A DNA stretch of 64,000 bases from an uncultured bacterium (GTDB lineage: Bacteria > Fidelibacterota > Marinisomatia > SCGC-AAA003-L08 > JACNLC01): assembly GCA_964409335.1 (NCBI GenBank), contig CAYPCW010000003.1, forward strand, positions 6,421 through 70,420, in the 5' to 3' direction. Both the position numbers and the translations under genes were made by a program. The notes beneath the pieces were generated by a model, which made no database searches, had not been told where the DNA came from, and worked only from the letters and a program-made list of their open reading frames with translations. Positions 6,354-61,324 of this stretch are shown in pieces. Position 1 is the stretch's first letter. Every line of letters begins with the position of its first letter.

Positions 6354-6407
6354 CCCGGTAAAAATTGTTGTTATCAGTTTATTTATTAATATTATGGTCA
6401 GAAGTGT

Positions 6408-25846: not shown

Positions 25847-26606
25847 GACTGCTGGTTTCTATAAAATGAATAATTTTCTGAACTTCTGTCGTCTGTTCCA
25901 TCTCATTTTTTATCCATTCCAAGGCTTGGGAAACATTCATTTTAGATCGAAATATTTTATGGTACACTTTTTTAATGGTTGCTCTTTGTTCTTGTGAAAA
26001 ACCTCTTCTTCGGAGACCCACATTGTTCAACCCTGCATACTTCATGGGTTCTCCGGTTGCCAGGATATACGGGGGCACATCCTGTACAACCCGATAAGCT
26101 CCCCCGACAAATGCATGTTCACCGATTTTGCAGAATTGATGTACGGGAGTCAGTCCCCCTATCGTCGCATGATACCCAATCTCAACGTGGCCTCCAAGTG
26201 AGATACTGTTTGCAAGAATAACATTATCACCGATAATGCAGTCATGTCCCACATGAACATATGCCATGATGAGGACGTCACTACCGATTTCAGTCTTCCC
26301 GTGGGCTGATGTTCCTCTGTTCAGGGTACAATATTCTCTGACACGGGTCCGATCTCCGATAACTAATTCTGTCTTTTCACCATCGAATTTAAGATCCTGT
26401 GGCAAACCTGCGATGACTGCCCCCTGGAAAATATAGCAATCCTTTCCTATTCGGGTGTGGGCTTTAATTGTGACGTGGTCATGGATTTCTGTATTGTCGC
26501 CAATGACACAGTCGCCTTCGATAATTGAGAAAGCGCCAATGGAGACATTGCCTCCGATAACCGCATCGGAGTGAATAATAGATGAAGGATGGATGGTAGT
26601 GGAAAT
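25833..26606 (-). CDS. lpxA: acyl-ACP--UDP-N-acetylglucosamine O-acyltransferase
   Basis: Hexapeptide repeats, GAVIAGLPQDLKF, and a C-terminal LRRRGFS...SSRGLI typical of LpxA. The conserved N-terminus (STTIHPSSIIHSDAVIGGN...) lies upstream of the first ATG/GTG/TTG. The frame is open only back to TAG at 26618-26616. Proposed ATT start at 26606, 6 nt after AGGAG. Confidence 0.85.
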   Translation of the reverse strand: MSTTIHPSSIIHSDAVIGGNVSIGAFSIIEGDCVIGDNTEIHDHVTIKAHTRIGKDCYIFQGAVIAGLPQDLKFDGEKTELVIGDRTRVREYCTLNRGTSAHGKTEIGSDVLIMAYVHVGHDCIIGDNVILANSISLGGHVEIGYHATIGGLTPVHQFCKIGEHAFVGGAYRVVQDVPPYILATGEPMKYAGLNNVGLRRRGFSQEQRATIKKVYHKIFRSKMNVSQALEWIKNEMEQTTEVQKIIHFIETSSRGLI

Positions 26607-32056: not shown

Positions 32057-32804
32057 CCTTTTTTATTTGTTCGCTTGTTTTTCCAAATCTTCTTTCACGT
32101 GTCTGGTAATTCAGAATGCAGTATTCCAGATCTTCTTTTGAAAATTCCGGCCAATATTTAGGATATATAATTATTTCTGAATAGGCAATCTGCCAAAGCA
32201 TAAAATTACTTACCCGGGATTCTCCGCCTGTTCTAATCAGCAAATCCGGATCCGGCAGGTCAAAAGTGTAAAGGTATTTTTCAAAGATATTTTCATCGAT
32301 ATCATCAGGGTTAAGTTCCCCACTTTTCACCAGCCCGGCAATTTTTTTTGACGCGTTGACAATTTCCTGCCTGCTGCCATAATTGAAAGCCAGGTTGAGG
32401 GTCAGCCCAGTATTCGCGGATGTAGATGCAATACCGGCTTCCAGTTCTGACACAACGGTTTTCGACAGTGCCTTTTTACACCCGATCATTCGAAGCTGAA
32501 CATTATTTTTATTTAAATCGCTCAGTTCATTCTTTAATGATTTGATAAATAATTGCATCAATGCGCTGACTTCGGAAGAGGGACGGTACCAATTTTCGGA
32601 TGAGAATGTGAATAAGGTCAGGGTGCCAATACCTAATTCACCGGCGGCTTCGGTGACCCGTCTCACAGCTCTGACCCCTTCATTATGTCCGGCAATCCTG
32701 GGAAGCCGTCTTTCATGAGCCCATCGGCCATTACCATCCATAATGATTGCAATGTGCTGTGGTAATTTTTCTGGTATAATTTTGTCCTTAGTTGATCTTT
32801 TCAC
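32043..32804 (-). CDS. uppS: isoprenyl transferase (undecaprenyl diphosphate synthase)
   Basis: 253 aa. HIAIIMDGNGRWA, TLFTFSSENW and RTGGE.R.SNF motifs. Confidence 0.95.
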   Translation of the reverse strand: MKRSTKDKIIPEKLPQHIAIIMDGNGRWAHERRLPRIAGHNEGVRAVRRVTEAAGELGIGTLTLFTFSSENWYRPSSEVSALMQLFIKSLKNELSDLNKNNVQLRMIGCKKALSKTVVSELEAGIASTSANTGLTLNLAFNYGSRQEIVNASKKIAGLVKSGELNPDDIDENIFEKYLYTFDLPDPDLLIRTGGESRVSNFMLWQIAYSEIIIYPKYWPEFSKEDLEYCILNYQTRERRFGKTSEQIKKDVIH

Positions 32805-38303: not shown

Positions 38304-38332
38304 AAAAGCCTCACATTCGAGGCTTTTTTTTT
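38304..38332 (+). terminator. Rho-independent terminator after rpmA
   Basis: AAAAGCCTC-acattc-GAGGCTTTT stem (9 bp) followed by a T-run to 38332. Confidence 0.8.
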
Positions 38333-38490
38333 GTAAAATATTTCCAATAAATAACTGATGTTGGTAAACGATCTTTTTTCTGCATTCTCCGTTGATTTTA
38401 AATTATCCTGTACGGGATTTATAAATATGAACCTAGCCACACCATGACAACCAGTACCTTAAAATTCTGTCAAAACCAATCATAAAGCCA

Positions 38491-39030
38491 ATGGAAGCCA
38501 ACATCATCGAATATATCAGACAGGCTCAAAAGGGCGATCAACGTGCATTCCATGCATTAGTGACATTTTATGATAATCGTGTATCCAATTTGATATATTC
38601 GATCGTACTTAATCGACAGGATACAGAAGATCTTTATCAGGAGATATTCCTGAAAGTATGGAAAAAGATCAGAAGTTTTCAATTTCGAAGCGACTTTTAT
38701 TCTTGGCTCTACAAGATTACCGTTAATACATGCTACAATTTCACAAAAAAACGGGCAAGGGTACGCACGGAAGATGGCGATGAAATTTTGGATAATACAA
38801 TATATCCATTTGAAGATAACGATCCCAATAAATTGGAAGCTGTCAAAGCGCTTTATTCAGCGATACAAAATTTATCTCCACGATTAAGAACAATTACGGT
38901 AATGCATTATCTTGAAGGCACTACGATCAGTAATATTTCCGTAATACTGAGAATTGAGGAGGGTACAATAAAAAAATATTTATTCCGGGCACGGGAAATA
39001 TTGAGAAAGGAGCTGGCTTTTTATGCCTGA
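38491..39030 (+). CDS. ECF-type RNA polymerase sigma-70 family factor
   Basis: 179 aa. Region 2 (DLYQEIFLKVWKK...F.SWLYKITVN) and region 4 (LSPRLRTITVMHYLEGTTISNISVIL...GTIKKYLFRAR). Confidence 0.85.
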   Translation: MEANIIEYIRQAQKGDQRAFHALVTFYDNRVSNLIYSIVLNRQDTEDLYQEIFLKVWKKIRSFQFRSDFYSWLYKITVNTCYNFTKKRARVRTEDGDEILDNTIYPFEDNDPNKLEAVKALYSAIQNLSPRLRTITVMHYLEGTTISNISVILRIEEGTIKKYLFRAREILRKELAFYA

Positions 39031-39859
39031 TATCTTTGAAAAGGAAATTTCAGAATACTCTGGAAGCAAATTAAATATCAATGAAAAATGGTTGAGTTAC
39101 CAACGGAACAAACTCATTGGTGCAATTGATCAAATCGAAAGCAGCAACGCTATAGACTTTCCCTTTAAATGGATCTTTTTCAAATTTCAGGAAGCGCCTT
39201 TGTCCTTTGCCCTTGTGTGTATTTTTTCCCTAATTGCGGGATTCTCCGCGGGTTTTTTCTTCAACGCATCCTATTCGGGCGGTAATGATCGTGCCGGGTT
39301 GAATATCATGGATATGTTGTCTTCAGATAAAATTTCCACAGTACAGTTAGATATTGATAAAAACTTAGCCGAACCATACATTTTTAAATTCCTATCCAAC
39401 GATGATTATCAATATGCAGGCCGAGAAAATGATCAAAACGTAATACTCCTGCTTGACCACATGCTGAATAACACTGCCAATCCCGGTGATCGGTTAAAAC
39501 TGGCGCGTAAACTTTCAGATACCGGAGTCACAAATGACATGGCTTTATCGGTAATTATTAAAGCTCTGCTGTTAGAGGACAATACAGCGATCCAATCGGT
39601 GCTGATCGAAAGTCTTCAGCACAATGAAACGACCACTGCCCGAGATGCTCTGCTCCAAATTGTCATTGGGCACTACGATGCTCCTGTCAGATTATCCGCA
39701 CTTAAATACCTGACTCAATTCTCATCAGACCCCCACGTTACTCAAATATTGAAGGTCGTCTCAATATCCGATGAAAATCCATCAGTACGATATACTGCAG
39801 AAAAATTACTCATGGCATCAATAAAGTCTGTCCAAACCGGTGGTGAAATTAAAAAATAA
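39023..39859 (+). CDS. putative anti-sigma factor, single-pass, with extracytoplasmic HEAT-like repeats
   Basis: 278 aa. Overlaps the sigma gene by 8 nt. One TM (LSFALVCIFSLIAGFSAGFFF). C-terminal repeats ...ARDALLQIV...PVRLSALKYL...ENPSVRYTAEKLL. No HxxxCxxC zinc motif. The role is inferred from position. Confidence 0.5.
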   Translation: MPDIFEKEISEYSGSKLNINEKWLSYQRNKLIGAIDQIESSNAIDFPFKWIFFKFQEAPLSFALVCIFSLIAGFSAGFFFNASYSGGNDRAGLNIMDMLSSDKISTVQLDIDKNLAEPYIFKFLSNDDYQYAGRENDQNVILLLDHMLNNTANPGDRLKLARKLSDTGVTNDMALSVIIKALLLEDNTAIQSVLIESLQHNETTTARDALLQIVIGHYDAPVRLSALKYLTQFSSDPHVTQILKVVSISDENPSVRYTAEKLLMASIKSVQTGGEIKK

Positions 39860-41013
39860 TGAGATCTTTTATCACAATCTTGCTCTTTTCTCTCGCTGTA
39901 AGCGGGCAAAGTATCACATTTGAATACGAATTAAATTCGGAAAGCGATACTTTACTTTTATTAAAATCCATTGATGGACCCATAACCGTTCGGGGGTCAG
40001 CTCAAAAAAATATTAAAATCGTTCAGCGTATCAGTTCCAATTTTGATATTGAGTCTTTAAATAAAGGAAATCTTAAATCTGTTAACCAGATTGTTGAATT
40101 TAATGAACAGCCTGGTATTTCAATCACAATAGATCGATCATATGATATCACGGTTCCAAAAAATATGAATATCCGCTTCGATCTTTTAGGGGGCAAGATT
40201 GATGTAACCGACATCCACGGCTCCTTAAAATTGGTAAAATTAAGCGGAGAAATAACCCTAAATGAGATCGAAGGAAAGGTGCATGTCACGACCGGCAACG
40301 GAGACTTAACTATTAACAATGTAAAGGGCGACATTTTGGGCTCTGCCCTAAATGGCAATATATTCACAGGGAATACCCAGGGAAAACTTCATCTGGAAAC
40401 AGGGAGTGGAGATTTATCTATCATCGAACACTCGGGAAATCTTATGATGAAAACATATGTGGGTAACTGTATCATTCAAAATACCATCGGAGACTCCATT
40501 CACGCCCTTACCCGAGGAGGTGATATTGCTATCCACTCACTATCATCAAATGATGGAATATTTAACACAATGGCAGGAGATATCTTACTTGAAAACGTTG
40601 ATGGAAATATTTCTACTGAAACATATGGAGGTATTATTTCAGGGTCAAATTGGACGGGGGATTTCACTTTGCAGAACTATTCAGGCGGTCTTTCCCTCGA
40701 TAATATTCACGGCAACCTGAAGATAAATTCATTTTATGGGAATGTCAGAATTCGTAGATATTTCCCAGACGAATCAATCGGGGATTCTTCCATAATTAAA
40801 ATTGTCTCGGGAAATCTGAATATGAGTTACACAGGAGACCACGTAGGCTTGGATGTGAAAACCCAGGGAGGGGCAATCACCAGTAATATTTTAAAAATGG
40901 TTGGGAAACTTCCATATATTGGGGTATATCATCCTGAAAACGAAATTCACACTATCAGCGTAACTTTATTGAATGGTAACATTATTATTAATAAAGGAAT
41001 CGTCAATGACTGA
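39859..41013 (+). CDS. DUF4097-type (putative adhesin / beta-solenoid) repeat protein
   Basis: 384 aa. Signal peptide and more than 10 iterations of G-[GNS]-[GDN]-[IL] rungs (GNGDLTINNVKGDI, GSGDLSIIEHSGNL, GGDIAIHSL, AGDILLENVDGNI...). TAATG overlap with the upstream gene. Confidence 0.7.
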   Translation: MRSFITILLFSLAVSGQSITFEYELNSESDTLLLLKSIDGPITVRGSAQKNIKIVQRISSNFDIESLNKGNLKSVNQIVEFNEQPGISITIDRSYDITVPKNMNIRFDLLGGKIDVTDIHGSLKLVKLSGEITLNEIEGKVHVTTGNGDLTINNVKGDILGSALNGNIFTGNTQGKLHLETGSGDLSIIEHSGNLMMKTYVGNCIIQNTIGDSIHALTRGGDIAIHSLSSNDGIFNTMAGDILLENVDGNISTETYGGIISGSNWTGDFTLQNYSGGLSLDNIHGNLKINSFYGNVRIRRYFPDESIGDSSIIKIVSGNLNMSYTGDHVGLDVKTQGGAITSNILKMVGKLPYIGVYHPENEIHTISVTLLNGNIIINKGIVND

Positions 41014-42529
41014 TCGGTATTATAAAATCGTTTTATTCGGTATCACAGTACTCTCCCTCATTTTGGGTTCATCCGGATTGGTCTCCTCAAAATCTTCTGA
41101 CGAAGAAGCGGAATCCAGGGAATTGATCCGGGACAAGGGTGTTACGAAAATTTTCAGCGATTATGAGATCACTGAAGATATGGTCTTAAACGGAAATTTA
41201 AAGATCATCGGGGGTGGGTTGGTCGTAAAAGGAACCGTAAATGGTGAAATCCAGGTGCTTGGTGGTGATATTAAAATCAATAAATCAGCCGTGATAAACG
41301 GAACCATCATCGCCATCGGTGGACAAATTGACAAAGACCCTGAAGCAACCATTAAGGGAGAAGTGCTGGAACTGAATAAAGATAAATTTTCAATCTCAAG
41401 GGATTGGGAAGGGGACAAGGGCATTCACCTAAATGATTGGATAAAAAGCGACGGCCCCTGTACTGCTTGTTCTATATTTGATCCAAAGCGACCCCACTCT
41501 CATCCCTATAAAGACGGTGGATGGATGCGGTATAATCGGACTGAAGGTCTTTATCTTCAGATGAATTTTCATGTGGAAAATGAATTTCTACCCGGGAACA
41601 TACTATACGGAGGTGTGGGTCGATCCTTTCACAGAAATAAGTATAGCGGTATTATCGGATTTGAGCAGCGATTGTTTCAGGATTCCTTTCAATTGTACAT
41701 TGAAAAATATAACAGGTCCACTTCAGAGGATACACTCAGGATCAACGGTGTCTTGAATTCTTTGGCTGCGTTTTTTATCCACCAGGATTTTTTGGACTGG
41801 TATGAAGCAGATGGATTCGGTGCCGGCGGATTCATCACCCTTCCCTGGAAGATAAAAATATCTGTTCAATATCGGGACGAATTGCAAAGTCAGATGAATA
41901 CCGTCGCTACCTGGTCACTATTCGGAAGCCAGGAGGTATTCCGGGGAACCTATTTGATCGAAGAAGGAAAAGAAATTTCCCTGAATTATAAAATTAGTAT
42001 TGGACAGCCTTATCAATGGAATTGTACTTCATCAGTCCTGGGGTATCTTCAATATTCAAAGACTGAATCGCAAAAAAAATCTGACTTCATTTACACAAAG
42101 CAGGACCTGATAGCGGACTCCTATTTCCCGTTTACCAGAAAATTAGGCATTCATACTCAAGTTAAAGCCGGATCTGTTTACGGTGATCATTTTGGTTTGC
42201 AGCATCGGTATTTAATTGGCGGAATTGGATCATTACGAGGATACACCTGGAAGCAATTTGACGGGACCCGTTTCTCTTCCGGGACAATCGAGATTGTTTT
42301 TGATGGTATCGCGGTTTTCTATGACCGGGCAGCCATCTGGTCTGATGGCGCCGATGAACTTTCATCAAACCACTGGGATAAATTACTGAATTCTCACAAT
42401 GGGGAATCCATTGGTTTTAGTTTTGGTTCTCACAGATCTCGTATTGATATCATAAAACCGTTGGGTACTGAAGGAGCTCAGAGCATTCAAATCAATTTTG
42501 TATTATATTACGGTAAGAGAGCATATTGA
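41006..42529 (+). CDS. secreted protein: bactofilin-like beta-helix repeats fused to an Omp85-like C-terminal region
   Basis: Start placed at ATG 41006 (MTDRYYKIVLFGITVL..., ATGA overlap). The N-terminal part LNGNLKIIGGGLVVKGTVNGEIQVLGGDIKINKSAVINGTIIAIGGQI resembles polymer-forming (bactofilin/DUF583) repeats. The C-terminal ~320 aa is aromatic/Gly-rich with GGIGSLRGY (42218-42244), the RGY-type motif of Omp85/TpsB barrels. Confidence 0.6.
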   Translation: MTDRYYKIVLFGITVLSLILGSSGLVSSKSSDEEAESRELIRDKGVTKIFSDYEITEDMVLNGNLKIIGGGLVVKGTVNGEIQVLGGDIKINKSAVINGTIIAIGGQIDKDPEATIKGEVLELNKDKFSISRDWEGDKGIHLNDWIKSDGPCTACSIFDPKRPHSHPYKDGGWMRYNRTEGLYLQMNFHVENEFLPGNILYGGVGRSFHRNKYSGIIGFEQRLFQDSFQLYIEKYNRSTSEDTLRINGVLNSLAAFFIHQDFLDWYEADGFGAGGFITLPWKIKISVQYRDELQSQMNTVATWSLFGSQEVFRGTYLIEEGKEISLNYKISIGQPYQWNCTSSVLGYLQYSKTESQKKSDFIYTKQDLIADSYFPFTRKLGIHTQVKAGSVYGDHFGLQHRYLIGGIGSLRGYTWKQFDGTRFSSGTIEIVFDGIAVFYDRAAIWSDGADELSSNHWDKLLNSHNGESIGFSFGSHRSRIDIIKPLGTEGAQSIQINFVLYYGKRAY

Positions 42530-42531
42530 TA

Positions 42532-43389
42532 ATGAAAAAAGTGATATTTATTGCAATGCTCATCTGCCTGATTTTCCCCAGTAATAAGGAAAAAATCCTT
42601 ACATTAAACGAACCACTTTACAATATAAAATCCATGAAAGTGAATATTGACTACAGTTTGGGGAATTTAGTGATCGAAGCGGGACAGCCCGATATGGCTG
42701 TAACCGGATACTTAAAATATTTTTATCAAAATATTGATGGATTGTTAGAATACGAAAAATTTGGCAGTACTGGTATTCTTCGGCTCGAAACGGAAGTAGA
42801 TATAGATTGGGATATCAATTATAAAAATTACGGTAAAAATAAAGTATACAATGAAAGCGAACTGTATCTTTCCCCTAAAATTCCCTTAAAAATGAATGTC
42901 GACGTGGGAATGGGAAAATCAACATTGTCCCTTCAGCAGTTAAAAATTGAAAATTTTGTTTTAGATTGCGGTATGTGTGAAACAAAGGTTGACTTTGGCG
43001 AGAGTTATAACCCTGTGGACTGTATGAAGATCGATGTAGACGCCGGATTGGGTTCTGCGACACTGAAAAATCTATTGAACTCAAATTCAGATCAAATGGA
43101 GTTTGAATGTGGATTAGGGACAATGAATCTCGAATTTGGCGGACAGTTAAAACATGACGTTGAAGTGGACATATCCGTTGGATTGGGAGCCGTGAATATT
43201 GAGATTCCGAAGGGGACAAACGTCATTTTTAAGTATGACGGATCGTTTTTGTCCAGTGTGGATCTGGATGATTTTTCAAATCATGGTGACGAGTACCGAA
43301 GCCGGGTCATTAACGATGCAAATTTTACAATCTATATCACCGGGTCCATTGGTGCAGGTTCTTTAAAAATAAAATGGATCGAAAATTAA
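42532..43389 (+). CDS. 'toast-rack' (LiaF C-terminal/DUF2154-like) repeat protein
   Basis: About 285 aa. Signal peptide and repeated G[LM]G rungs (DVGMGKSTLSL, DAGLGSATLKNL, CGLGTMNLEF, VGLGAVNIEIPKGTNV, GAGSLKIKW). ATG 42532 is preferred over TTG 42526. Confidence 0.55.
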   Translation: MKKVIFIAMLICLIFPSNKEKILTLNEPLYNIKSMKVNIDYSLGNLVIEAGQPDMAVTGYLKYFYQNIDGLLEYEKFGSTGILRLETEVDIDWDINYKNYGKNKVYNESELYLSPKIPLKMNVDVGMGKSTLSLQQLKIENFVLDCGMCETKVDFGESYNPVDCMKIDVDAGLGSATLKNLLNSNSDQMEFECGLGTMNLEFGGQLKHDVEVDISVGLGAVNIEIPKGTNVIFKYDGSFLSSVDLDDFSNHGDEYRSRVINDANFTIYITGSIGAGSLKIKWIEN

Positions 43390-43534
43390 ATCAGTCTGCC
43401 ACAATCAACCCTGACATAGTTATATCATTGTTTCAGGAAAAATATCAATTTAATATGAGTGGATAATCATTCCATTGTCTTTCTTTCGCTCTAACTTAAT
43501 GTAATTAAATGATTTATCAATGTTTTCATCTCCG

Positions 43535-43549
43535 TGGCACATCATTTGC
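43535..43549 (+). promoter_or_regulatory. sigma-54 (-24/-12) promoter
   Basis: TGGCAC-ATCAT-TTGC matches TGGCAC-N5-TTGC exactly. It lies about 50 nt upstream of ATG 43600, which is preceded by GGAG. A sigma-54 activator gene is 3.3 kb downstream. Confidence 0.6.
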
Positions 43550-43599
43550 GCACTTTCTTCTGAAGTTGGATTAACACATGATTAATTTTGGAGATTAAA

Positions 43600-44856
43600 A
43601 TGATCACACACAATAAAATCAAACTACTTACCGTTCTGTCAGTACTTGCCTTTTCTTTAGTTTATGCTATCAATTTTCAGGATGAGGAAGAATTGAAAAA
43701 TGTAGACAAGAATATGGAAAATTTTGAGATAAATATGCACAATTGGGAAATCCAAATGGAAAAATGGGGGGATGACCTTGAAAAATCAATTGAACAGGGT
43801 GAGACAATCCCGCCCCTTCCACCGGTTCCATCACTGAAAATGGTTAAAGAATTTGACGACAAGTCGCTCAAACTGGGTATCTACATCGAAAACATGGACT
43901 TTGAAGAAGCCTATCAAAGACATTATCCTGAATGTTACGGTGTGCTGGTCACCGGTGTGGTCCATGGCGGTAATGCGGACAGAGCCGGCATCATTAAGGA
44001 CGACATCATCATGGAATTTGGTGGTGAAAAAGTCCGGTACGAATCTCATTTGTTAAATCTTCGGGACAGCAAAAAAATCGGCGACTCTGTCCCGATCAAA
44101 TACTTTCGAAATGAGAAGATCATGGAAACGACCCTCGTATTCGCTCTACCTTCTCTGCCTGGGGATGATGACGAAACCTGGACGGATTTACAAAAATTTG
44201 GCAAAACTAAAAGTTATTCGGTTGGATATGGCGGCGGAGGTCCTCTCGGAATTAAAGTCGACTATGACCTTACCAATTTGAATAACTTTATCAACCAGTA
44301 CGGCTTTCGCCCCATTAATAAAAATTCTCTGGTTTACTTTGGCGGGTATGGAATGGGAAACGTGGGTAAAGGATTATTCATTGGCGGTATGGGCGCCGGA
44401 CTAAAATATGATCAAAAATTTACAACGCCGGATGATGGCTATACACGATTGTTAAATATTGAATCCGGTTTTGGCGGTGTCACTCTATTGAAAAAAATGC
44501 CCCTGTTCTCTTCAAATATTATCGTCGATTTGGGTACTACCCTCGGCGGGGGGACAACATCTATTGAGATCGCTCAGTCCGATGGAAATTTTTCCTGGGA
44601 TGGCACCCCGCTGATTGATGGACCCAACTGGTATGCCAGGTATGAGAAAAATTATTTGGTGGTTTATCCGACCGTCGGGGTACTGATCAGGATTAAAAGT
44701 TGGCTCGGACTGCACGCTTCCGCCGGTTACCTTTGGAACTATTCCATCAAGGATAACTGGACATCACTCCCCTTTGAATATGATGTTACAGGTGATAATG
44801 AACCAGACCCATTTGGCGGACAAACAATTGAGGTGGGCGTGTGGTTTGGTAACTAA
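43600..44856 (+). CDS. PDZ domain protein with Gly-rich C-terminal (beta-barrel-like) region
   Basis: About 418 aa from ATG 43600. N-terminal signal/anchor, helical acidic segment, PDZ (GVLVTGVVHGGNADRAGIIKDDIIMEFGGEKV). The C-terminal ~220 aa has GYGGGG, GGYGMGNVGKG, GGMGAG and GFGG runs and alternating hydrophobic strands. No protease domain. Confidence 0.7.
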   Translation: MITHNKIKLLTVLSVLAFSLVYAINFQDEEELKNVDKNMENFEINMHNWEIQMEKWGDDLEKSIEQGETIPPLPPVPSLKMVKEFDDKSLKLGIYIENMDFEEAYQRHYPECYGVLVTGVVHGGNADRAGIIKDDIIMEFGGEKVRYESHLLNLRDSKKIGDSVPIKYFRNEKIMETTLVFALPSLPGDDDETWTDLQKFGKTKSYSVGYGGGGPLGIKVDYDLTNLNNFINQYGFRPINKNSLVYFGGYGMGNVGKGLFIGGMGAGLKYDQKFTTPDDGYTRLLNIESGFGGVTLLKKMPLFSSNIIVDLGTTLGGGTTSIEIAQSDGNFSWDGTPLIDGPNWYARYEKNYLVVYPTVGVLIRIKSWLGLHASAGYLWNYSIKDNWTSLPFEYDVTGDNEPDPFGGQTIEVGVWFGN

Positions 44857-44874
44857 ACTATAATTCTCCGAATT

Positions 44875-44912
44875 AAAGAGCAGATCGGAATTTCTAATCT
44901 GCTCTTTTTTTT
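44875..44912 (+). terminator. Rho-independent terminator after the PDZ gene
   Basis: AAAGAGCAGAT-(11 nt loop)-ATCTGCTCTTT followed by a T-run to 44912. Confidence 0.8.
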
Positions 44913-45128
44913 GATGTAAATGTCTCAGGTCTGTTTTAATTTACCGCGGGTTATCAGAATCAGATTCCTCCAACCGGTATTTTTACACTTACGATAAAAA
45001 TAATTTGTCTGTTTGACAACTCATTAAATGGGTAACCGGTAATAAAAGTGATCCATTCGATAATGACAATCATATCAATTTTAACATGATTTATTGGCAT
45101 GTACACAACATAAGAGAACAGAACCAAA

Positions 45129-45692
45129 TTGTTTACTGACAAAATTATTTCCGGTATTATCGCATTAGGCTCGTTGATTTATTCCACTATCCCAGGTGTG
45201 AATGCAGAATTCTCCCCCATTGTTCTTTTCCCCAGAAGTGGCGCATTGTTGGTCAATACTCACCTTGACAATTGTTTTTCACCGGGACTTGACGAAATTA
45301 TACTCACCGGCCATCCAATTCGTTTCCATTTTACCGTTCAGATCATTGAAAATGAGACAAATCATATTATTTTAGAGAACAGTTTTTATCACGAAATTCG
45401 TTACTATCTCCTCGATAAAATCTATAAAGTTCATATTTCTGAAAACCTGGAAACCCTCGAAACAGAATCCTTCCAGCGTGCCAAGGAATATATAACTATT
45501 CTCGAAATGATCAACACCGTTTCGCGTGAAGACATCCGATTTGAAAAAGAGTACTTTGTAAAAATTACAGCGCATCTGGATAAAATCTTCATCCCAAACC
45601 TGGATAAAGAAATCGATCTCATGTTTTACTGGAAAAAAAACAAACCCGAGGTCAGATCGCCCGCTTTTAATCGCATGCTGATCACACAATGA
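45129..45692 (+). CDS. hypothetical secreted protein (possibly DUF4390-like, by context)
   Basis: 187 aa, TTG start, signal-peptide-like N-terminus. ATGA overlap with the downstream kinase. The position directly upstream of an NtrY/NtrX-like pair mirrors the known DUF4390 context. The family is not verifiable by eye. Confidence 0.45.
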   Translation: MFTDKIISGIIALGSLIYSTIPGVNAEFSPIVLFPRSGALLVNTHLDNCFSPGLDEIILTGHPIRFHFTVQIIENETNHIILENSFYHEIRYYLLDKIYKVHISENLETLETESFQRAKEYITILEMINTVSREDIRFEKEYFVKITAHLDKIFIPNLDKEIDLMFYWKKNKPEVRSPAFNRMLITQ

Positions 45693-46879
45693 AATTTCGA
45701 CTCCCTTCTATCAAAATTCAGTTTCTATTTATCGTACAATTCGTGTTGATTTTATCTGTACTTTTTTATCGATTGTATTTCATCCAAAATTTTGAACAAT
45801 ACGAAAATCAGATTGCTAACCTTGGAGTCGAAGACAGGCTTCGATCAATCTACCAGAATTACCGGGATCAAATCGCTCCTGAATATCTTGATGATTTTAA
45901 AATGGATATTGATACGTTGTTGGGTATAACGACCTTAAGTAAGTGGGGCGCCTCGAATTTTGAATCTGAAATGGAGCTCTATTCCCTGTATATCCTTATT
46001 TCTATCATCATTGCAGTATTTTTATTTACTATATTTACTTTTAAACTCATCACCCGGCCGTTGGAAAAACTACAGTATGCGACCCAGGCATTGTCCCGGG
46101 GTGATTTGAATGTTAATGTACCGGAGAGTAAATATTCACCTTTAAACGAACTCATTGTCTCCTTTAATTCGATGGTCAAAGAACTTGAGGCATCACGCGA
46201 CCAACTAATCTCTGCAGAAAAAGAAACAATCTGGCGGGAAATGGCGAGGGTCATGGCTCATGAAATTAAAAATCCACTTACACCCTTACAATTGACAGCT
46301 GAACGACTCGAGTCAAAATTGCTGGAATCAACCGATGCCGTGGTCAGGATCCTTCCCCGGTCGCTGGAGGTGATCAAGGAGGAAATTGCAGGACTGAAAC
46401 GACTGACCGTTGAATTCTCAGAATTTGCACGTCTTCCGGAATCCCTGCCCTCAAACTTCGATCTGGTAAAACTTGTAAAAGAAGTAGTGGCGCCCTATCA
46501 GTCCAAAGCTAAAATTAATTTCAAGGATAAGGAAGAACTACACATATTTGCCGATAGATTTCAAATCAAACAGGTTTTGGTCAATTTAATTCAAAACAGT
46601 ATCCATGCGAGCGAGACTACTCCGGAGATTTCCATACACACCGGGACCGGTGCCGATCAATTGATTTGGGTGACCGTTTCCGATCGGGGAAAAGGGATAC
46701 CTGAGGAGGATATCCCAAGAATATTCGAGCCTTATTTTTCCAAACGTAAAAAAGGGACCGGACTCGGTCTCGCAATTGTGAAAAAAATAGTCGAACACCA
46801 CAATGGTGTTATTTCGGTGACTAGCCGGGTAAATGAAGGAACCTCATTTATGATTAAATTACCGGTGCATTACTATTAA
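45689..46879 (+). CDS. sensor histidine kinase, NtrY-like (TM-HAMP-HisKA-HATPase, no PAS)
   Basis: 396 aa. Two TM segments, HAMP, H-box MAHEIKNPLTPLQLTAERL, N-box LVNLIQNSIHA, G-boxes DRGKGI and GTGLGLAIV. Confidence 0.85.
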   Translation: MKFRLPSIKIQFLFIVQFVLILSVLFYRLYFIQNFEQYENQIANLGVEDRLRSIYQNYRDQIAPEYLDDFKMDIDTLLGITTLSKWGASNFESEMELYSLYILISIIIAVFLFTIFTFKLITRPLEKLQYATQALSRGDLNVNVPESKYSPLNELIVSFNSMVKELEASRDQLISAEKETIWREMARVMAHEIKNPLTPLQLTAERLESKLLESTDAVVRILPRSLEVIKEEIAGLKRLTVEFSEFARLPESLPSNFDLVKLVKEVVAPYQSKAKINFKDKEELHIFADRFQIKQVLVNLIQNSIHASETTPEISIHTGTGADQLIWVTVSDRGKGIPEEDIPRIFEPYFSKRKKGTGLGLAIVKKIVEHHNGVISVTSRVNEGTSFMIKLPVHYY

Positions 46880-46914
46880 AATTTTCAGGTACACCAAAAA
46901 ATTCAGGACAGCCA

Positions 46915-48270
46915 ATGCGTATTTTAGTCGTTGATGATGAGAAAAATATCCGGTTTACCCTTACCGACATTCTTCAGGATGAGGGATATACCGTGGACAG
47001 TGTGGATAGCGGCGAAAAGTGCCTGGCACGCCTGAAGAGACAAAAATACGAGCTGGTCATTCTGGATGTTCGTATGCCCGGAATGGACGGAATTCAGGTT
47101 TTTCAAAAACTCAAGGAAATTGAATATGATGCTGATGTGCTGGTTATTTCAGGCCATAGCGGAATAGAAACCGCCGTACAGGCGGTAAAGCTCGGAGCAT
47201 ACGATTTTATTGAAAAGCCGCTGTCAATGTCTAAAATTCTCACAGCAGCGAGAAATATTGCACAAAAACAATCCCTACAGTTTACCGCCAGTCAGACCAT
47301 GTCCGATAAACTGAAAAAATATGCGATGATTGGAAATTCTCCCCAAATCCAGAGTATTCGGGATATCATCGAAAAGGCGGCGCCGACGGATACAAAAGTC
47401 CTTATCCGGGGTGAAAGCGGAACTGGAAAAGAATTGGTCGCATGGGCGATTCACGATAAAAGTCATCGACGTGAAAAACCATTTATTGCTTTTAATTCTG
47501 CTGCGCTCCCAACCGAACTGGTTGAAAGTGAACTATTCGGATATGATAAGGGCGCCTTTACCGGTGCCGAAAAGCGGAAGATCGGTAAACTGGAGATGGC
47601 TCATGGGGGAACCCTCTTTTTAGATGAGATCGGCGACATGAGTATGACAACACAGGCTAAAGTTCTCAGGGTGATCCAGGAAGGAACGTTCGAACGGGTG
47701 GGCGGCGAAAGTACTATCCGTATTGATGTGCGTATCCTGGCAGCAACCCACAAAGACCTGGAAAACATGATCTCTGAGAGCGCTTTTCGCCAGGATCTGT
47801 TCTATCGCCTGAATGTTCTGCCGATGAGCATCCCACCCCTTCGGGATCGAACCGGTGATGTCCTGTTTCTCGCAGACCATTTTCTGCAGTATTATGCCAC
47901 AGAACTGAAGGAAGATCTTAAATATCTGACCCCGAAAGCCAAAGCGTGTTTGGAGTCATATGAGTTCCCTGGGAATGTCCGGGAACTGAGAAATCTCATC
48001 GAACGTTTATGCATCCTTGTAACCAATCAGGAGATCACGGATAAAGATGTCCTTCCTCATCTTCGAAACAAAACCGGTAATGACGAAATCTGCGATTTTA
48101 TGACATTTGAAAATTTTTCGGATGCCAGGCGGGAATTTGAAACCCGGTTTATCACTGAAAAACTGAAACAATCCAAATGGAATATCACTGCAGCCGCAGA
48201 GAAACTGGGGATGAGACAACCCAACTTATCCCGAAAAATGAAAGAGCTGAAAATTTCCCGTATCGACTGA
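46915..48270 (+). CDS. sigma-54-dependent Fis-family response regulator (NtrC/NtrX-like)
   Basis: 451 aa. Receiver domain (VDDE...ILDVRMPGMDG), AAA+ with Walker A GESGTGKEL, GAFTGA loop (YDKGAFTGA), LFLDEIG, and a C-terminal HTH (NITAAAEKLGMRQPNLSRK). Confidence 0.9.
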   Translation: MRILVVDDEKNIRFTLTDILQDEGYTVDSVDSGEKCLARLKRQKYELVILDVRMPGMDGIQVFQKLKEIEYDADVLVISGHSGIETAVQAVKLGAYDFIEKPLSMSKILTAARNIAQKQSLQFTASQTMSDKLKKYAMIGNSPQIQSIRDIIEKAAPTDTKVLIRGESGTGKELVAWAIHDKSHRREKPFIAFNSAALPTELVESELFGYDKGAFTGAEKRKIGKLEMAHGGTLFLDEIGDMSMTTQAKVLRVIQEGTFERVGGESTIRIDVRILAATHKDLENMISESAFRQDLFYRLNVLPMSIPPLRDRTGDVLFLADHFLQYYATELKEDLKYLTPKAKACLESYEFPGNVRELRNLIERLCILVTNQEITDKDVLPHLRNKTGNDEICDFMTFENFSDARREFETRFITEKLKQSKWNITAAAEKLGMRQPNLSRKMKELKISRID

Positions 48271-48421: not shown

Positions 48422-50779
48422 ATGACATTTAATAAAGTTATAACATTATGTCTTTTATTCTCACTCGGATTTTCGGCAGGGATATCCGGTTATGTCCGTA
48501 ATTCTGAGAATGGTGAGCCCATTTCCTTTGCCACCATCATGGTTCAACATACGCAGATAGGCACATCGGCAGATATTCACGGGTATTATGTGATTCAGGG
48601 CGCTCCCGTCGGAGATGTGTCATTGATCTTTATGATGATTGGTTTTTCACCCGACACTTTGCAAGTCCGCAATTACGATGGAGATAACCGGGTGGATGCA
48701 GATCTTTCCCCCATCGTCCTTTCCGGTGAGACCGTCGAGGTGAGTGGAGAAAAAGCACAATTTCTCCGGCAATCCAATGTGAGCAACATTAACCTGACAG
48801 TGAGGGATATCCGGTCGGTTCCCGCCTTTATTGAAGATGACATTTTCCGGACCTTTCAATTATTGCCCGGCGTCACATCACAGAATGATTTTTCTGCAGC
48901 GATTATCGTTCGCGGTGGCAGCCCCGATGAAAATTTAGTTCTGTTGGACACGCCACAAATCTACAACCCCTACCATGTGGGTGGAATTTTCTCCACATTC
49001 AACACTGACGCTATATCAAATGCCAGGTTTATTTCCGGTGGATTTCAATCTGAATACGGTGGACATCTGTCCTCGGTAATCAGCCTGACCACGAAAGAAG
49101 GAAATTCACGCAGAGGCCGGTTCTCTGCCGACCATTGGTTCTCGGATTACTGGAATATCAACGATATCCAGGGCGAAGTCACCCTGTTAAGTTCCAAGTT
49201 TCTTGCCGAAGGTCCTTCTTATAAAGGATCATGGTTTTTCTCCGGTCGCAGAACTTATTTTGACCAGCTTGCTTCTTTATACTACCGGGTCAGAGGTACC
49301 GACCAGAACTGGAATTATTATTTCTGGGATACTAATTTCAAAATCCATTCTGACATTTCATCAAACCACCGGATCACCTATACCCAATATTCCGGTTTAG
49401 ATGATTTATTTATCAATGTGGGTGGCAACGATCTGCCAGAGATTAATTTTCTTTGGGATTGGGGTAACCGGACCCGAAGTATTCAATGGCGATATCTCCC
49501 CTCTTCAAAACGGGTACTGGAGACCAACCTGACTCAAGCCCTCTATTTTTTTAATGTAGATTTTGATTTTACTATCCTCCGTGAAAGCAGTTTTTCAGAT
49601 TCCACGGAATCATCAGGGTTCGTAGCGCACATGACCAACCGGGTGAAGGATCAGGGATTTTCCCAGAATTTGACGTGGTTTTTGGATTCCGGGCACTCGG
49701 TGAATACCGGGTATTCCCTAAAAAAATTAAGTCTGCAATACCGTGAAACATTTGCCGGTTCCAAGATTGTGGACTGGGATCAATCTCCGACTCTTTTCGA
49801 GTGCTATATCACCGATTCGCGTCGTCCGGTTGACCGCCTGATCCTCGATATCGGTGTTCGCCTGACAAAGTATGAGTATTATGACCATTGGGTGTTTGAT
49901 CCGCGGTTCAATTTCAAATATTTTCTTACGGGCGAGCTGGCGGTGAAAGGAAGCTGGGGAATGTACTCACAATTTTTATTTACCATTAATCATGATGACC
50001 AGCTTCTGCGGATCGTGGATTTCTGGCAGCCCGTCATGAAAGGATATCAGCCTCAGCGCGCCGAGCATTTTATCCTTGGGCTGGAATATTTCGCACCTTA
50101 CAATCTGTCAGTAAATCTCGAGGGATATGTAAAACCATACCGATACATTTTGGACATGAGCCGGGTTTACCACCCTTCTGATGGAGAGGGCGGATTTGTC
50201 GCCGGCACCGGAATCGCACGGGGTATTGAAATCCTGCTGAAGAAATATCAGGGGGATATTACCGGATGGCTGGGGTATTCCTACTCCCTGACAAAAAAAA
50301 CCATGGACTATAACGAAAATGGCGTCATCGAACCGGTGTTGGGTGAAAAATTCCATGCGAAATATGACATGCCTCACAGTTTTAATCTCGTGATAAATTA
50401 CCGGATAAATCCGAAGCATACCCTATCCACCAGTTGTACAGCCCGCACCGGTGAACCCTTCACCCCGCCTAAGGGGAAAGTGTTCCATCAGGGTGTGAAT
50501 ATTTTTGGATCCGTGGATAATCCCTATCAACGGCTGGATACTTATTACGGACTCAAGAACAGCGCCCGGTATCCCTTTTATTTTCGGCTGGACCTTGCCT
50601 ACGGTTATAGTTCAACGGTGTTCAAAAAGGCTGTTGTATATCAGCTTCAACTCATCAATCTCACCAATCATTATAATGTGCTGCTGTACAACTGGGACCT
50701 GGAAGCATCACCCGCTAAAGTCAGCGCTTATAGCATGTTCCCCATACTTATCACCTTCGGATTAGAAATTAAATTATGA
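48422..50779 (+). CDS. TonB-dependent receptor with N-terminal carboxypeptidase-regulatory-like domain
   Basis: 785 aa. Signal peptide, ISGYVRNSENGEPISFATIMV (CarboxypepD_reg-like), a plug region (VPAFIEDDIFRTFQLLPGV, IIVRGGSPDEN), a long barrel, and a terminal aromatic-rich ...ITFGLEIKL. Confidence 0.8.
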   Translation: MTFNKVITLCLLFSLGFSAGISGYVRNSENGEPISFATIMVQHTQIGTSADIHGYYVIQGAPVGDVSLIFMMIGFSPDTLQVRNYDGDNRVDADLSPIVLSGETVEVSGEKAQFLRQSNVSNINLTVRDIRSVPAFIEDDIFRTFQLLPGVTSQNDFSAAIIVRGGSPDENLVLLDTPQIYNPYHVGGIFSTFNTDAISNARFISGGFQSEYGGHLSSVISLTTKEGNSRRGRFSADHWFSDYWNINDIQGEVTLLSSKFLAEGPSYKGSWFFSGRRTYFDQLASLYYRVRGTDQNWNYYFWDTNFKIHSDISSNHRITYTQYSGLDDLFINVGGNDLPEINFLWDWGNRTRSIQWRYLPSSKRVLETNLTQALYFFNVDFDFTILRESSFSDSTESSGFVAHMTNRVKDQGFSQNLTWFLDSGHSVNTGYSLKKLSLQYRETFAGSKIVDWDQSPTLFECYITDSRRPVDRLILDIGVRLTKYEYYDHWVFDPRFNFKYFLTGELAVKGSWGMYSQFLFTINHDDQLLRIVDFWQPVMKGYQPQRAEHFILGLEYFAPYNLSVNLEGYVKPYRYILDMSRVYHPSDGEGGFVAGTGIARGIEILLKKYQGDITGWLGYSYSLTKKTMDYNENGVIEPVLGEKFHAKYDMPHSFNLVINYRINPKHTLSTSCTARTGEPFTPPKGKVFHQGVNIFGSVDNPYQRLDTYYGLKNSARYPFYFRLDLAYGYSSTVFKKAVVYQLQLINLTNHYNVLLYNWDLEASPAKVSAYSMFPILITFGLEIKL

Positions 50780-52344
50780 AATTTATCAGTACCCTTCTAT
50801 GTGCGACCTTTCTGGTTTTACTGTCTTGTGAACGGGAGATTTCACTCTATGACATCGATGGAATTAACGAGGGCAACAATTATTATCAGGGTGAACTGCG
50901 TATCGAAGGTATCCTGTTCCCCACCGAAAATATGGCTTTAGTTCGCATCGATAAGACCTTTCCTCTCAACGAAAATTACATCTATGATTGCCTCGATAAC
51001 GACGGCGACTGGGACCCCCTTACGGATGATCTTGGAGAGGACGGACAGGTAAATGATCCTAATGACGACGATCATGACGGTATTACCAACGAACCCAGTA
51101 TTGGGGAGAATAACGGTATCCCCGATTGTGGCGAACCCAATGTGGATGAGTATGATGAAGTCCTGCCTAACTTTCATGTGGATTCTACGATCTGTTCATC
51201 GGTGAAACTGTATGGTCCATGGGGTGAATATCCGTTCACATGGGTGGACAATGCCGCCCAATTGATCTCATATCCGGAATACGACCCGAATCTGGATGAA
51301 GCCATCACCGAATGGTACGGAGGGTGGATCCCCATAAGTGAAATCGATTTCGGAATGTCACCGGATATGCCCATTGAAGACCGGATTTATTCCCTTGAAT
51401 GTGACTGCGGCGAATTCGGTGTTATTACCGCAACGGATACTTTGTTACTGCCCGTCAATTTTTATGGCGACAGCCTCGGAATTACCGCGCTGTATGAAAA
51501 TATTTACAATTATCCCACTATTCTGAATTTACTACAAAACTGTCCTGTGGATAATTTCTGGCTTACTTCATCCACCGGTGAGGCATTCTCCACCCGGCAG
51601 ATCTATTTTTCATCCCCCCTGGAAGCCACCAGTTTCTGGGTAAAGGTTGAAGAATTTTCACCTGACGGAATAAATCTCGATACCTGTACGCCTACGAATT
51701 TGAATTATATTCACGCCTTTCCTGCGATGAGCACTGTAGAAGGGATGTTGAATGATAATACTTACATCACCGGAACCGTCATAGCTGAAATCCCCGGATA
51801 CTATCGCATCAATGTTCAGACCATGTCCCATGGATTTGAAAATTATTACTTTTATACTGATCTGGACCTTCATGACCCTGTCCGAAGTAATTTGCGAAAA
51901 AATGATGGAAGTGTGGCGATGGGGAGTTTCGGTGCATTGACCACTAATTCTTTGTACACGATTGTTCAGCTCCCCCCTATGGTATACATGGATCACCTGG
52001 ATGTAGCCGGGCATTTATTGTATATCGGGATTGAGACCCAGATCAACGTAAACTGGTTCCATATTCGGATTTCCGGGGCAAATATTACCGGTCAGATTCC
52101 CGGCGGGGAAATTGCCGATGAGGACTGGAATCTAATTGTTAGTCCGTCCACCGGCGAAATATCAGGTCAACCGCAGGTGGATCCTATCCTCAACGGGGAA
52201 AATATACTGTTTGCAGTGATCGAACTGGATCCGGCATCCCTGGTACCGGGTGCGGTGATCTGTATGGAAGATATCGGATTTACCTGGACAGGTCATAATT
52301 TCCCTTATGTGGTATTCTACGGTCCCTGTATTACGATAGAATAA
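50776..52344 (+). CDS. lipoprotein with Asp-rich calcium-binding-like insert (possibly DUF4249-like partner of the receptor)
   Basis: 522 aa. Lipobox LVLLSC. DNDGDWDPLTDDLGEDGQVNDPNDDDHDGITNE (DxDxDG-type). ATGA overlap with the receptor gene. Confidence 0.6.
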   Translation: MKFISTLLCATFLVLLSCEREISLYDIDGINEGNNYYQGELRIEGILFPTENMALVRIDKTFPLNENYIYDCLDNDGDWDPLTDDLGEDGQVNDPNDDDHDGITNEPSIGENNGIPDCGEPNVDEYDEVLPNFHVDSTICSSVKLYGPWGEYPFTWVDNAAQLISYPEYDPNLDEAITEWYGGWIPISEIDFGMSPDMPIEDRIYSLECDCGEFGVITATDTLLLPVNFYGDSLGITALYENIYNYPTILNLLQNCPVDNFWLTSSTGEAFSTRQIYFSSPLEATSFWVKVEEFSPDGINLDTCTPTNLNYIHAFPAMSTVEGMLNDNTYITGTVIAEIPGYYRINVQTMSHGFENYYFYTDLDLHDPVRSNLRKNDGSVAMGSFGALTTNSLYTIVQLPPMVYMDHLDVAGHLLYIGIETQINVNWFHIRISGANITGQIPGGEIADEDWNLIVSPSTGEISGQPQVDPILNGENILFAVIELDPASLVPGAVICMEDIGFTWTGHNFPYVVFYGPCITIE

Positions 52345-61293: not shown

Positions 61294-61324
61294 AAAATTA
61301 TCAGCACCTTCAGACCGGTGATTA

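Follow-up and report, generated by a model that had tools for sequence, protein, structure and literature searches.

A predicted sigma-54 module and an ECF sigma operon, both envelope-directed, side by side in an uncultured Fidelibacterota bacterium

In the sigma-E/RseA/RseB/DegS pathway of Escherichia coli, an extracytoplasmic function (ECF) sigma factor is held by a single-pass anti-sigma factor and a PDZ domain faces the periplasm; the sigma-E regulon includes the Omp85 family, and the logic is that of outer-membrane surveillance. In FecI-FecR-FecA cell-surface signalling, too, an ECF sigma factor and a membrane anti-sigma factor are co-encoded with an outer-membrane barrel. Here we describe a locus with elements of such pathways, at positions 38447 to 48270 of a 64-kb stretch of contig CAYPCW010000003.1 (the window), from an uncultured bacterium of the phylum Fidelibacterota, also called Candidatus Neomarinimicrobiota, Marinimicrobia or SAR406. 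In it, an ECF sigma operon of five genes (module A) is followed by a gene for an outer-membrane PDZ protein with its own sigma-54 promoter, and then by genes for a DUF4390 protein, a sensor kinase and a sigma-54 activator (together module B). The closest relatives of module B are the three-component NtrYX/PlrPSR systems. Published genetics has a DUF4390 protein acting as the third component of an NtrYX-family system (PMC13001219), and the available text of PMC7240162 links NtrYX to the cell envelope in alpha-proteobacteria.

Module B resembles PlrP-PlrS-PlrR/NtrYX from beta- and gamma-proteobacteria (PMC13001219) in having the DUF4390 gene directly 5' of the kinase gene, with a 4-nucleotide (nt) overlap, and in the succession of a kinase and a response regulator of REC-AAA+-HTH_8 type. 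It differs in occurring in FCB-group phyla (Fidelibacterota and Cloacimonadota), outside the taxa surveyed in that work, in a kinase that has neither a PAS domain nor a periplasmic domain of PDC size, and in the absence of rsmB upstream. Its regulator also reaches only 417 bits against the NtrX cut-off of 600, and it keeps both the GAFTGA motif and a defined sigma-54 target, the PDZ gene with its phased palindromic enhancer.

The reading that we favour, with reasonable though not strong confidence, is that two modules lie next to each other in the region, each inherited separately and each directed at the outer membrane, and that they do not make up one obligate system; they probably serve related envelope functions. 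Our observations concern gene content, folds, topology, promoters, the enhancer and the pattern of conservation. The regulatory wiring is well supported by comparative evidence, and it is the physiological role and the coupling of the modules that we infer. The locus is directed at the envelope, since all structural products carry either a signal peptide or a membrane anchor and two of them are barrels of the outer membrane; topology analysis finds one hydrophobic N-terminal segment resembling a signal peptide in each of proteins 3 to 7. The host is a diderm, with a canonical BamA bearing POTRA domains, an LpxC-FabZ fusion and a Kdo transferase also encoded in the window. An earlier note on this DNA had drawn the nine genes together as a single envelope system under two-tier control. 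Its placing of the genes, the sigma-54 promoter and the terminators was correct, apart from slight changes to three start codons, and all nine open reading frames (ORFs) lie on the forward strand. The features are as follows, with lengths in amino acids (aa) or base pairs (bp) and TM for transmembrane.

38304..38332, + strand: intrinsic terminator after rpmA, a 9-bp stem and then a T-run
38447-43389, + strand: module A, the ECF sigma operon
38447..38471, + strand: ECF-type promoter ACAACC-N15-TGTC, lying 44 nt ahead of the sigma start codon
38491..39030, + strand: ECF (group 4) sigma-70 factor, 179 aa (Pfam Sigma70_r2 and Sigma70_r4_2)
39023..39859, + strand: candidate single-pass anti-sigma factor (HEAT_2, 29.9 bits; TM helix 62-80)
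39859..41013, + strand: exported DUF4097 toast-rack protein, 384 aa (Pfam DUF4097, 43.9 bits; signal-peptide-like N-terminus)
41006..42529, + strand: POTRA-less 16-stranded barrel of the Omp85 superfamily with a bactofilin-like N-domain (AlphaFold2, Foldseek, motifs)
42532..43389, + strand: second exported toast-rack, of Toast_rack_N plus LiaF-like_C type (ortholog profile, Pfam)
43422-48270, + strand: module B, comprising enhancer, sigma-54 promoter, PDZ gene, terminator and DUF4390-kinase-activator operon
43422..43456, + strand: upstream activating sequence, half-site ATATCA (43422-43427) plus palindrome ATATCAattTAATAT (43442-43456)
43535..43550, + strand: sigma-54 promoter TGGCACatcatTTGCg, -24 TGGCAC and -12 TTGC, the only match in the window
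43600..44856, + strand: outer-membrane PDZ protein (PDZ_2, 34.1 bits; AlphaFold2; Foldseek)
44875..44912, + strand: intrinsic terminator of the PDZ unit, an 11-bp perfect stem and then a T-run
45129..45692, + strand: exported DUF4390 protein, a PlrP-like accessory component (Pfam DUF4390, 48.1 bits; signal-like N-terminus)
45689..46879, + strand: two-TM sensor kinase, HAMP-HisKA-HATPase (Pfam, topology)
46915..48270, + strand: NtrC/NtrX-type sigma-54 activator, REC, AAA+ (GAFTGA) and HTH_8 (Sigma54_activat, 238.8 bits)

Probable separate inheritance of the two modules

Close relatives (53-73% identity) keep all nine genes together with the flanking rng-rplU-rpmA and the downstream genes, the full nine-gene order being present in loci L001, L003, L009 and L025-L027. 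The neighbourhood is thus conserved in related genomes, and a juxtaposition confined to this contig, which would have undone the earlier note's proposal, is not what is seen. Nevertheless, nine-gene synteny says little about functional linkage, since the flanking housekeeping genes are shared as well and the order partly reflects close relatedness.

Beyond these relatives the two modules part company. Six genes, from the ECF sigma to the PDZ gene, are kept in L005, L006 and L012; L006 and L012 have no two-component genes nearby, and the L005 contig ends after the PDZ gene. L004 and L010 carry the barrel and toast-rack pair alone. The more distant L007 keeps the sigma, HEAT anti-sigma, DUF4097 and barrel genes without module B, the barrel having 24% identity and the flanking genes being different. 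Conversely, in L021-L024 the PDZ-DUF4390-kinase-activator set stands among unrelated neighbours with no ECF operon, and L023 belongs to the Cloacimonadota.

A survey in which metagenome contigs were scanned with a PDZ alignment gave 80 loci, which were mapped by iterated profiles and counted only where the flank was long enough. A DUF4390 gene comes next after the PDZ gene in 44 of the 50 loci with at least 1.3 kb downstream, and the full DUF4390-kinase-activator trio is present in 29/31 with at least 5.2 kb downstream. With at least 3 kb of upstream sequence available, module A precedes the PDZ gene in only three loci out of 34, all of them close relatives of the window, and module B stands alone in the other 31. 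The PDZ-DUF4390-kinase-activator set is an autonomous four-gene module of Fidelibacterota and Cloacimonadota, and the earlier claim of one system, taken as an obligate unit, is not supported by these counts or by L007 and L004, where module A is found by itself, in whole or in part. Each promoter motif was also sought in front of the other module and neither was found there.

One short contig (L062 1-3859) encodes the HEAT protein, the barrel, the toast-rack and the PDZ protein with no DUF4097 gene between HEAT and barrel, so that the make-up of the ECF module is variable, with the barrel as its constant member.

A proposed DUF4390-associated sigma-54 switch with one predicted target

The gap between the toast-rack and PDZ genes is 210 nt long and holds the sigma-54 site. 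Within the window alone such a site is not above chance (one found, 1.2 expected). However, the element TGGCAC-N5-TTGC lies 5' of the PDZ gene in 60/72 related loci, against a chance of about 0.06 per locus, and because of this conservation the promoter proposed in the earlier note can be accepted. Upstream of it is the 15-bp palindrome ATATCA-N3-TGATAT, centred 86 bp from the -24 element, with the extra ATATCA half-site 20 bp further upstream. Of 58 loci, 39 have a perfect palindrome and 55 have one with at most two mismatches; none of the size-matched control regions inside the gene had fewer than two. Measured at its centre, the palindrome lies 84-88, 96, 102-108 or 115-119 bp from the -24 element, clustering at about 86, 96, 106 and 117 bp, that is, in steps of about one helical turn. 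Such phasing is as expected for an activator that sits on one face of the DNA and contacts the sigma-54 holoenzyme by looping. Elsewhere in the window, the palindromes with at most one mismatch (30813 and 50245) are inside genes and have no sigma-54 site.

L006, L012 and L033 have no adjacent two-component genes and yet keep the promoter and enhancer, which implies regulation in trans. Four loci (L033, L054, L006 and L012) have a PDZ gene without the adjacent trio; the first, third and fourth of these have a perfect palindrome and the sigma-54 promoter, and L054 has no upstream sequence. Where the PDZ-barrel gene is duplicated in tandem upstream of the trio (L058, L069, L071, L077, L079, L084 and L090/L091), the sigma-54 promoter and enhancer precede the first copy.

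The recognition helix of the activator varies with the enhancer. It reads QPNLSRK in all 22 loci with ATATCA...TGATAT and Q(V/I)SNLSRK in all six with a T-flanked site, which is TTATCA... in five loci and a poorer match, CTATAT..., in L078. A half-site-like sequence, ATATCAATTTTAACATGA, also lies 40-55 nt upstream of the DUF4390 gene. Autoregulation of the DUF4390 operon through it was considered and rejected, the half-site ATATCA at 45072 (within 45072-45092) being unconserved in seven other loci.

For the PDZ gene, the most likely start is the ATG at 43600, which is preceded by a GGAGA ribosome-binding site. As modelled with AlphaFold2, the product consists of a signal helix, a long helix, the PDZ domain, which is the low-confidence part, and a C-terminal barrel. 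The barrel (residues 212-416) is 8-stranded and antiparallel with a pLDDT of about 90, and Foldseek places it in the OmpA class, matching CarO, Ail, OmpA, OmpX and OmpW at a probability of 1.0, the TM-scores normalised to the target being 0.5-0.65. The PDZ domain has a conserved YGV loop and similarity to DegP-type PDZ domains, and the protein family has more than 160 members. The terminator that the earlier note saw after this gene recurs: a hairpin with T-run is clear in 7/8 loci examined (window, L001, L003, L009, L021, L022 and L023), and none is obvious in L024. The PDZ gene thus seems to be a monocistronic transcription unit.

The trio begins with the DUF4390 protein, for which the earlier description as a secreted DUF4390-like protein holds. 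Its gene joins the kinase gene at an ATGA overlap of stop and start. The next protein is a kinase, as called earlier, with HAMP, HisKA and HATPase domains, but it is only loosely NtrY-like: by Pfam and topology it has neither a PAS domain nor a PDC-sized periplasmic domain, and the loop between its two TM helices is about 73 aa long. The identification of the third protein as a sigma-54 activator is borne out by its REC, Sigma54_activat and HTH_8 domains and by the GAFTGA motif visible in the translation. Its NCBIfam scores, 455 bits for NtrC (cut-off 558.6) and 417 bits for NtrX (NF051870; cut-off 600), are both below the equivalog cut-offs. These scores are what could suggest a classical NtrYX/NtrBC-type role for the trio, regulating nitrogen or redox metabolism, with the PDZ gene incidental. 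Such a role is very improbable, since the scores fall short, the kinase lacks a PAS domain, genes of nitrogen metabolism are absent from the surroundings, and the only conserved sigma-54 promoter and enhancer of the module precede the PDZ gene and travel with it across two phyla.

We propose that module B is a three-component sigma-54 switch, in which the exported DUF4390 protein would modulate the membrane kinase, tuning the balance of its activities by analogy with Bordetella PlrP. Since the kinase here has no PDC domain, the contact between the two must differ from that of PlrP. The kinase would phosphorylate the NtrC/NtrX-type activator, which would bind ATATCA-N3-TGATAT about 86 bp upstream of the sigma-54 promoter and, by DNA looping, switch on a single monocistronic gene. 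The product would be a periplasmic PDZ domain anchored by an 8-stranded outer-membrane barrel, and the conserved YGV loop and the DegP-type similarity suggest that this domain could capture the C-termini of envelope proteins.

For NtrYX-family systems and their DUF4390 accessories, the signals are poorly defined, as are most of the direct targets. Module B offers a DUF4390 system with one predicted target gene, a 15-bp operator and a phased sigma-54 promoter, across two FCB phyla. Because target, operator and promoter are defined and conserved, the circuit could be rebuilt and tested in a laboratory host. It also extends the association of DUF4390 with a kinase outside the Proteobacteria.

An ECF operon for toast-racks and an unusual Omp85 barrel

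The terminator after rpmA isolates the ECF operon from the upstream ribosomal-protein genes. The five genes are tightly packed or overlapping, as the earlier note had described. The sigma and anti-sigma genes overlap by 8 nt (ATGCCTGA), the anti-sigma and DUF4097 genes by 1 nt (TAATG), and the DUF4097 and barrel genes by 8 nt (ATGACTGA), given that the barrel starts at 41006, which the alignment of homologues supports, and not at 40973. The ATG of the second toast-rack gene (42532) lies 2 nt past the barrel stop (TGATAATG).

ACAACC-N15-TGTC occurs once in the 64-kb window. With a spacer of 15 or 16 it recurs just 5' of the ECF gene in L001, L003, L005, L006, L007, L008, L009 and L012. It stands 27-45 nt from the called ATG, and about 44 nt in most of the nine loci, the distant L007 included; in L009 it is 3 nt inside the ORF call. 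This promoter is presumed to be autoregulatory. There are thus two conserved regulatory layers in the locus, as the earlier note had held, the other being the sigma-54 promoter with its enhancer.

The sigma factor has only the sigma-2 and sigma-4 domains in about 180 aa, the defining layout of an ECF (group 4) factor, and scores 97.6 bits against TIGR02937 (cut-off 42.9), so that its earlier identification holds; no NCBIfam equivalog for an ECF group reaches its cut-off. The paper that reclassified ECF factors makes no mention, in its main text, of contexts with DUF4097, Omp85 or bactofilin. The protein in the anti-sigma position, correctly recognised beforehand as a single-pass HEAT-repeat protein (the HEAT_2 cut-off is 27.7 bits), has a 61-aa cytoplasmic N-terminus, one TM helix and a periplasmic HEAT-repeat domain. 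It shares two traits with anti-sigma factors of the zinc-binding class I, namely a single TM helix and a gene that overlaps the sigma gene.

Both toast-rack calls have also stood up. DUF4097 is well above its cut-off of 22.9 bits in the first. For the second, LiaF-like_C and Toast_rack_N are both sub-threshold in the window copy, but 7/8 orthologues match both models, and the ortholog profile matches PDB 4QRK with an E-value of 1.2e-14.

The barrel protein was described earlier as a fusion of bactofilin-like and Omp85-like parts, and the second part is secure. Pfam Omp85 scores 21.9 bits, just below the cut-off of 24. The AlphaFold2 model (pLDDT 74.9) shows a signal helix, a short-stranded beta-helix and a 16-stranded barrel, and Foldseek matches it to BamA, TamA and Sam50 with probability 1.0 and E of about 1e-11. 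The Omp85 hallmarks are kept in the family alignment, as LRGY in loop L6 (a nearly invariant block) and FYDRG in beta-13, where the window copy reads FYDRA. There is no Pfam POTRA match in this protein and the model has the beta-helix in that place, whereas a canonical BamA with POTRA domains is encoded elsewhere in the window (29633-32056, -). The family has 14 close members, and its profile finds 887 clusters at E <=1e-10.

The bactofilin-like part is less certain. The beta-helix covers about 80 residues (roughly 58-134 in the numbering of the 518-aa ORF). Pfam Bactofilin matches nine of twelve family members (best E 1.8e-5), and it gives no match for the window copy at E up to 10, nor do PDB sequences give a bactofilin match for the N-domain. 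The description therefore holds for the family; for the window copy it is tentative. Among PDB sequences there was a marginal match of the N-domain to a beta-helix of gamma-carbonic-anhydrase type (single sequence, E 0.021), which was set aside, and the matches of a profile search, to Kelch-type designer proteins, were judged artefactual. Lying behind a signal peptide and continuing into an outer-membrane barrel, the bactofilin-like domain should be periplasmic; bactofilin itself (PF04519) is, in contrast, a cytoplasmic, polymer-forming cytoskeletal protein.

Module A would work as an autoregulated ECF sigma/anti-sigma operon. The sigma factor would be held by the single-pass anti-sigma with its periplasmic HEAT domain and, on release, would transcribe its own operon from ACAACC-N15-TGTC. 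The cargo would be two exported toast-rack scaffolds and an auxiliary Omp85 barrel in which a bactofilin-like beta-helix replaces the POTRA domains. The HEAT domain, the toast-racks and the beta-helix may form a signalling complex or chain that spans the envelope across the periplasm. Between 43389 and 43600 no terminator was found, so read-through from the ECF operon into the PDZ gene is possible, and it may be a limited form of the two-tier control proposed earlier.

Comparison with the sigma-E pathway brings out an ECF sigma factor with a single-pass anti-sigma, a periplasmic PDZ domain and an Omp85-family barrel on both sides. However, the PDZ protein of the window has no protease domain, is anchored in the outer membrane and is predicted to be under sigma-54, not the ECF sigma; where RseA has its own type of periplasmic domain, the anti-sigma here carries a HEAT domain; and RseB, DegS and RseP genes are absent from the locus. 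An ECF sigma and membrane anti-sigma co-encoded with an outer-membrane barrel are also found in SigX-CfrX-CmpX-OprF (ECF102, PMC7826278). By that analogy the barrel of an ECF operon may feed a signal back to the anti-sigma. In contrast to the ECF102 and Fec operons, the window barrel is of Omp85 type and neither a porin nor a TonB-dependent transducer, and the accessory proteins are toast-racks, with no FecR domain and no mechanosensitive channel.

The Lia/Psp toast-rack modules (LiaF, LiaG, YvlB; PMC11237479) likewise combine DUF4097 and DUF2154/LiaF-C-type toast-racks with an envelope-stress transcription system, and some toast-rack contexts have an operon-encoded sigma factor (PMC11237479). 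Membership of the locus in that group was rejected: PspA/LiaH, PspC, LiaI-LiaF-TM, LiaRS and PspF were found neither in the locus nor among the scanned ORFs of the window. In the window the toast-rack partner is an Omp85-type barrel in a diderm. Toast-racks have been predicted to be intracellular (PMC11237479), but this does not fit the window copies, since both bear signal peptides and so would face the periplasm, and these copies therefore bear on that published prediction.

Among Omp85/TpsB proteins, the 'noNterm' and alternative-N-domain subfamilies described in the available text of PMC4104836 and PMC11358297 share with the window protein the 16-stranded barrel, the L6 motif (L/M)RG(W/Y) and the beta-13 motif FxDxG. 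Like them it has a canonical BamA as a paralogue in its own genome, and it is probably stress-regulated, as is proposed in that text for the noNterm paralogues of Leptospira. It differs in its bactofilin-like N-domain of about 80 residues, which is neither POTRA, nor absent, nor one of the N-types named in the available text of those two papers, and in the predicted control of its gene by an ECF sigma (window clade) or sigma-54 (Zixibacteria and Ignavibacteriales). Two outer-membrane protein architectures in the locus are uncharacterised: one joins a PDZ domain to an OmpA-like barrel, the other a bactofilin-like beta-helix to an Omp85 barrel. Both seem to be under stress regulation, and the phyla concerned have few cultured members or none.

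Possible coupling between the modules

Two other arrangements pair proteins of module A type with DUF4390/sigma-54 systems. In L017 (Ignavibacteriales), L020, L105 (a complete Zixibacteria genome) and L106, a HAMP kinase and a sigma-54 activator are followed by a promoter, a bactofilin-like/Omp85 barrel, a DUF4390 gene and a second kinase (L017 6480-13901; L020 6635-13245; L105 4089-10718; L106 4092-11338). The promoter 5' of the barrel reads TGGCAC-N5-wTGTT. The barrel has 26% identity to the window barrel over residues 55-423 (E 3e-22) and belongs to a subfamily with more than 200 members, annotated only as 'BamA/TamA family'. In the second arrangement, a DUF4097 gene (Pfam E about 1e-15) lies between the PDZ and DUF4390 genes (L066 9384-10193 and L068 2735-3595). 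This recurrence suggests a shared envelope function, makes a common pathway plausible and speaks against the pairing in the window being pure coincidence. It does not make the nine genes one unit.

The four clusters of the first arrangement are preceded by partner-switching genes (STAS, anti-sigma kinase and SpoIIE) and a NUDIX gene, and L020 has a palindrome, GTGGCA-ATT-TGCCAC, just past the activator stop codon.

Several points weigh against the reading of two separable envelope modules, or against parts of the mechanism given for them. The recurrence of the barrel family and DUF4097 beside DUF4390/sigma-54 systems means that the modules may be more coupled than 'separable' implies. The co-variation of recognition helix and enhancer is a single evolutionary event, the second group being one clade, and it is this together with adjacency that links the activator of the window to its enhancer. 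With a kinase loop of 73 residues, the published mechanism by which PlrP acts on a PDC domain does not apply literally. The zinc motif H-x3-C-x2-C is absent from the HEAT anti-sigma of the window and from its Marinimicrobia orthologues; the L007 homologue (5498-6430) has it, as HHRNTCIRC, and the anti-sigma assignment is thereby supported by homology. No rpoN candidate of the right size is present among the ORFs of the 64-kb window. The locus turned up in DNA runs from aquifers and groundwater only, and none of the RNA runs searched holds the PDZ region. Finally, sensing or repair of outer-membrane or periplasmic damage by both modules, as we would suggest, is an envelope-stress role deduced from domain types.

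In the L007 homologue the zinc motif sits in an N-terminal extension of about 40 residues that is lost in all Marinimicrobia copies, which share instead a short conserved helix, WLxxQRNRLMGAIDQ.

A wider conjecture, to be entertained only tentatively, is that the DUF4390-kinase-activator set is an ancient, widespread sensor of outer-membrane integrity whose sigma-54 outputs are dedicated barrels, and that it has become coupled to an ECF pathway in the lineage of the window. In Fidelibacterota and Cloacimonadota that output may be the PDZ-barrel, and in Zixibacteria and Ignavibacteriales it may be the bactofilin-like Omp85 protein. The coupling, both physical and functional, may run through the toast-rack, HEAT and beta-helix scaffolds, giving an envelope-spanning surveillance of outer-membrane protein biogenesis. 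Such a sensor would, if real, fill in little-studied phyla the role that sigma-E and Rcs have in enterobacteria.

An unlikely alternative is the integrated envelope-surveillance system of nine genes, in which the ECF and sigma-54 pathways would converge on the barrel, the toast-racks and the PDZ protein, and the PDZ gene would receive both ECF read-through and a sigma-54 input. The lack of a terminator between the ECF operon and the PDZ gene and the nine-gene order in the six relatives listed above favour integration, as do the PDZ genes that adjoin the ECF operon in L005, L006, L012 and L062 even without two-component genes, the barrel placed between sigma-54 activator and DUF4390 gene in Zixibacteria and Ignavibacteriales, and the DUF4097 gene inserted in the PDZ module of L066 and L068. 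What makes it unlikely is that module B is alone in 31/34 loci, that module A or parts of it are alone in L007 and L004, that the nine-gene loci share their flanking housekeeping genes and so owe their synteny partly to close relatedness, and that no ECF motif precedes module B genes and no sigma-54 motif precedes module A.

At the other extreme, and decidedly improbable, the modules could be functionally unrelated, chance neighbours that in one clade share a variable region downstream of rng-rplU-rpmA. The gene content between rpmA and the CarboxypepD_reg gene does vary, from two genes (L004/L010) through six (L006/L012) to nine (window), and module B is mostly found elsewhere without module A. 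However, the two further independent arrangements described above join the barrel or DUF4097 with DUF4390/sigma-54 systems in other lineages, and all the products go to the same compartment.

The surroundings of the locus can be described briefly. Across the 64-kb window there are no Rfam matches to structured RNAs at gathering thresholds, and no tRNA gene was found. Downstream (48422-52344, +), a CarboxypepD_reg plus Plug outer-membrane protein of 785 aa is translationally coupled to a 522-aa protein without a Pfam match. Relatives keep this pair, likewise downstream of the locus; in L004 it comes directly after the toast-rack gene, and the partner gene there is DUF4249. On the other strand (29633-32056, 32043-32804 and 26606-28027, all -), the BamA, which has at least four POTRA domains, adjoins uppS, and one ORF fuses LpxC with a FabA/FabZ-like domain. 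Towards the end of the window (59677-63289, -), two adjacent proteins are of the Exo_endo_phos family, and one of them also has a Lamin Tail Domain and a type I dockerin.

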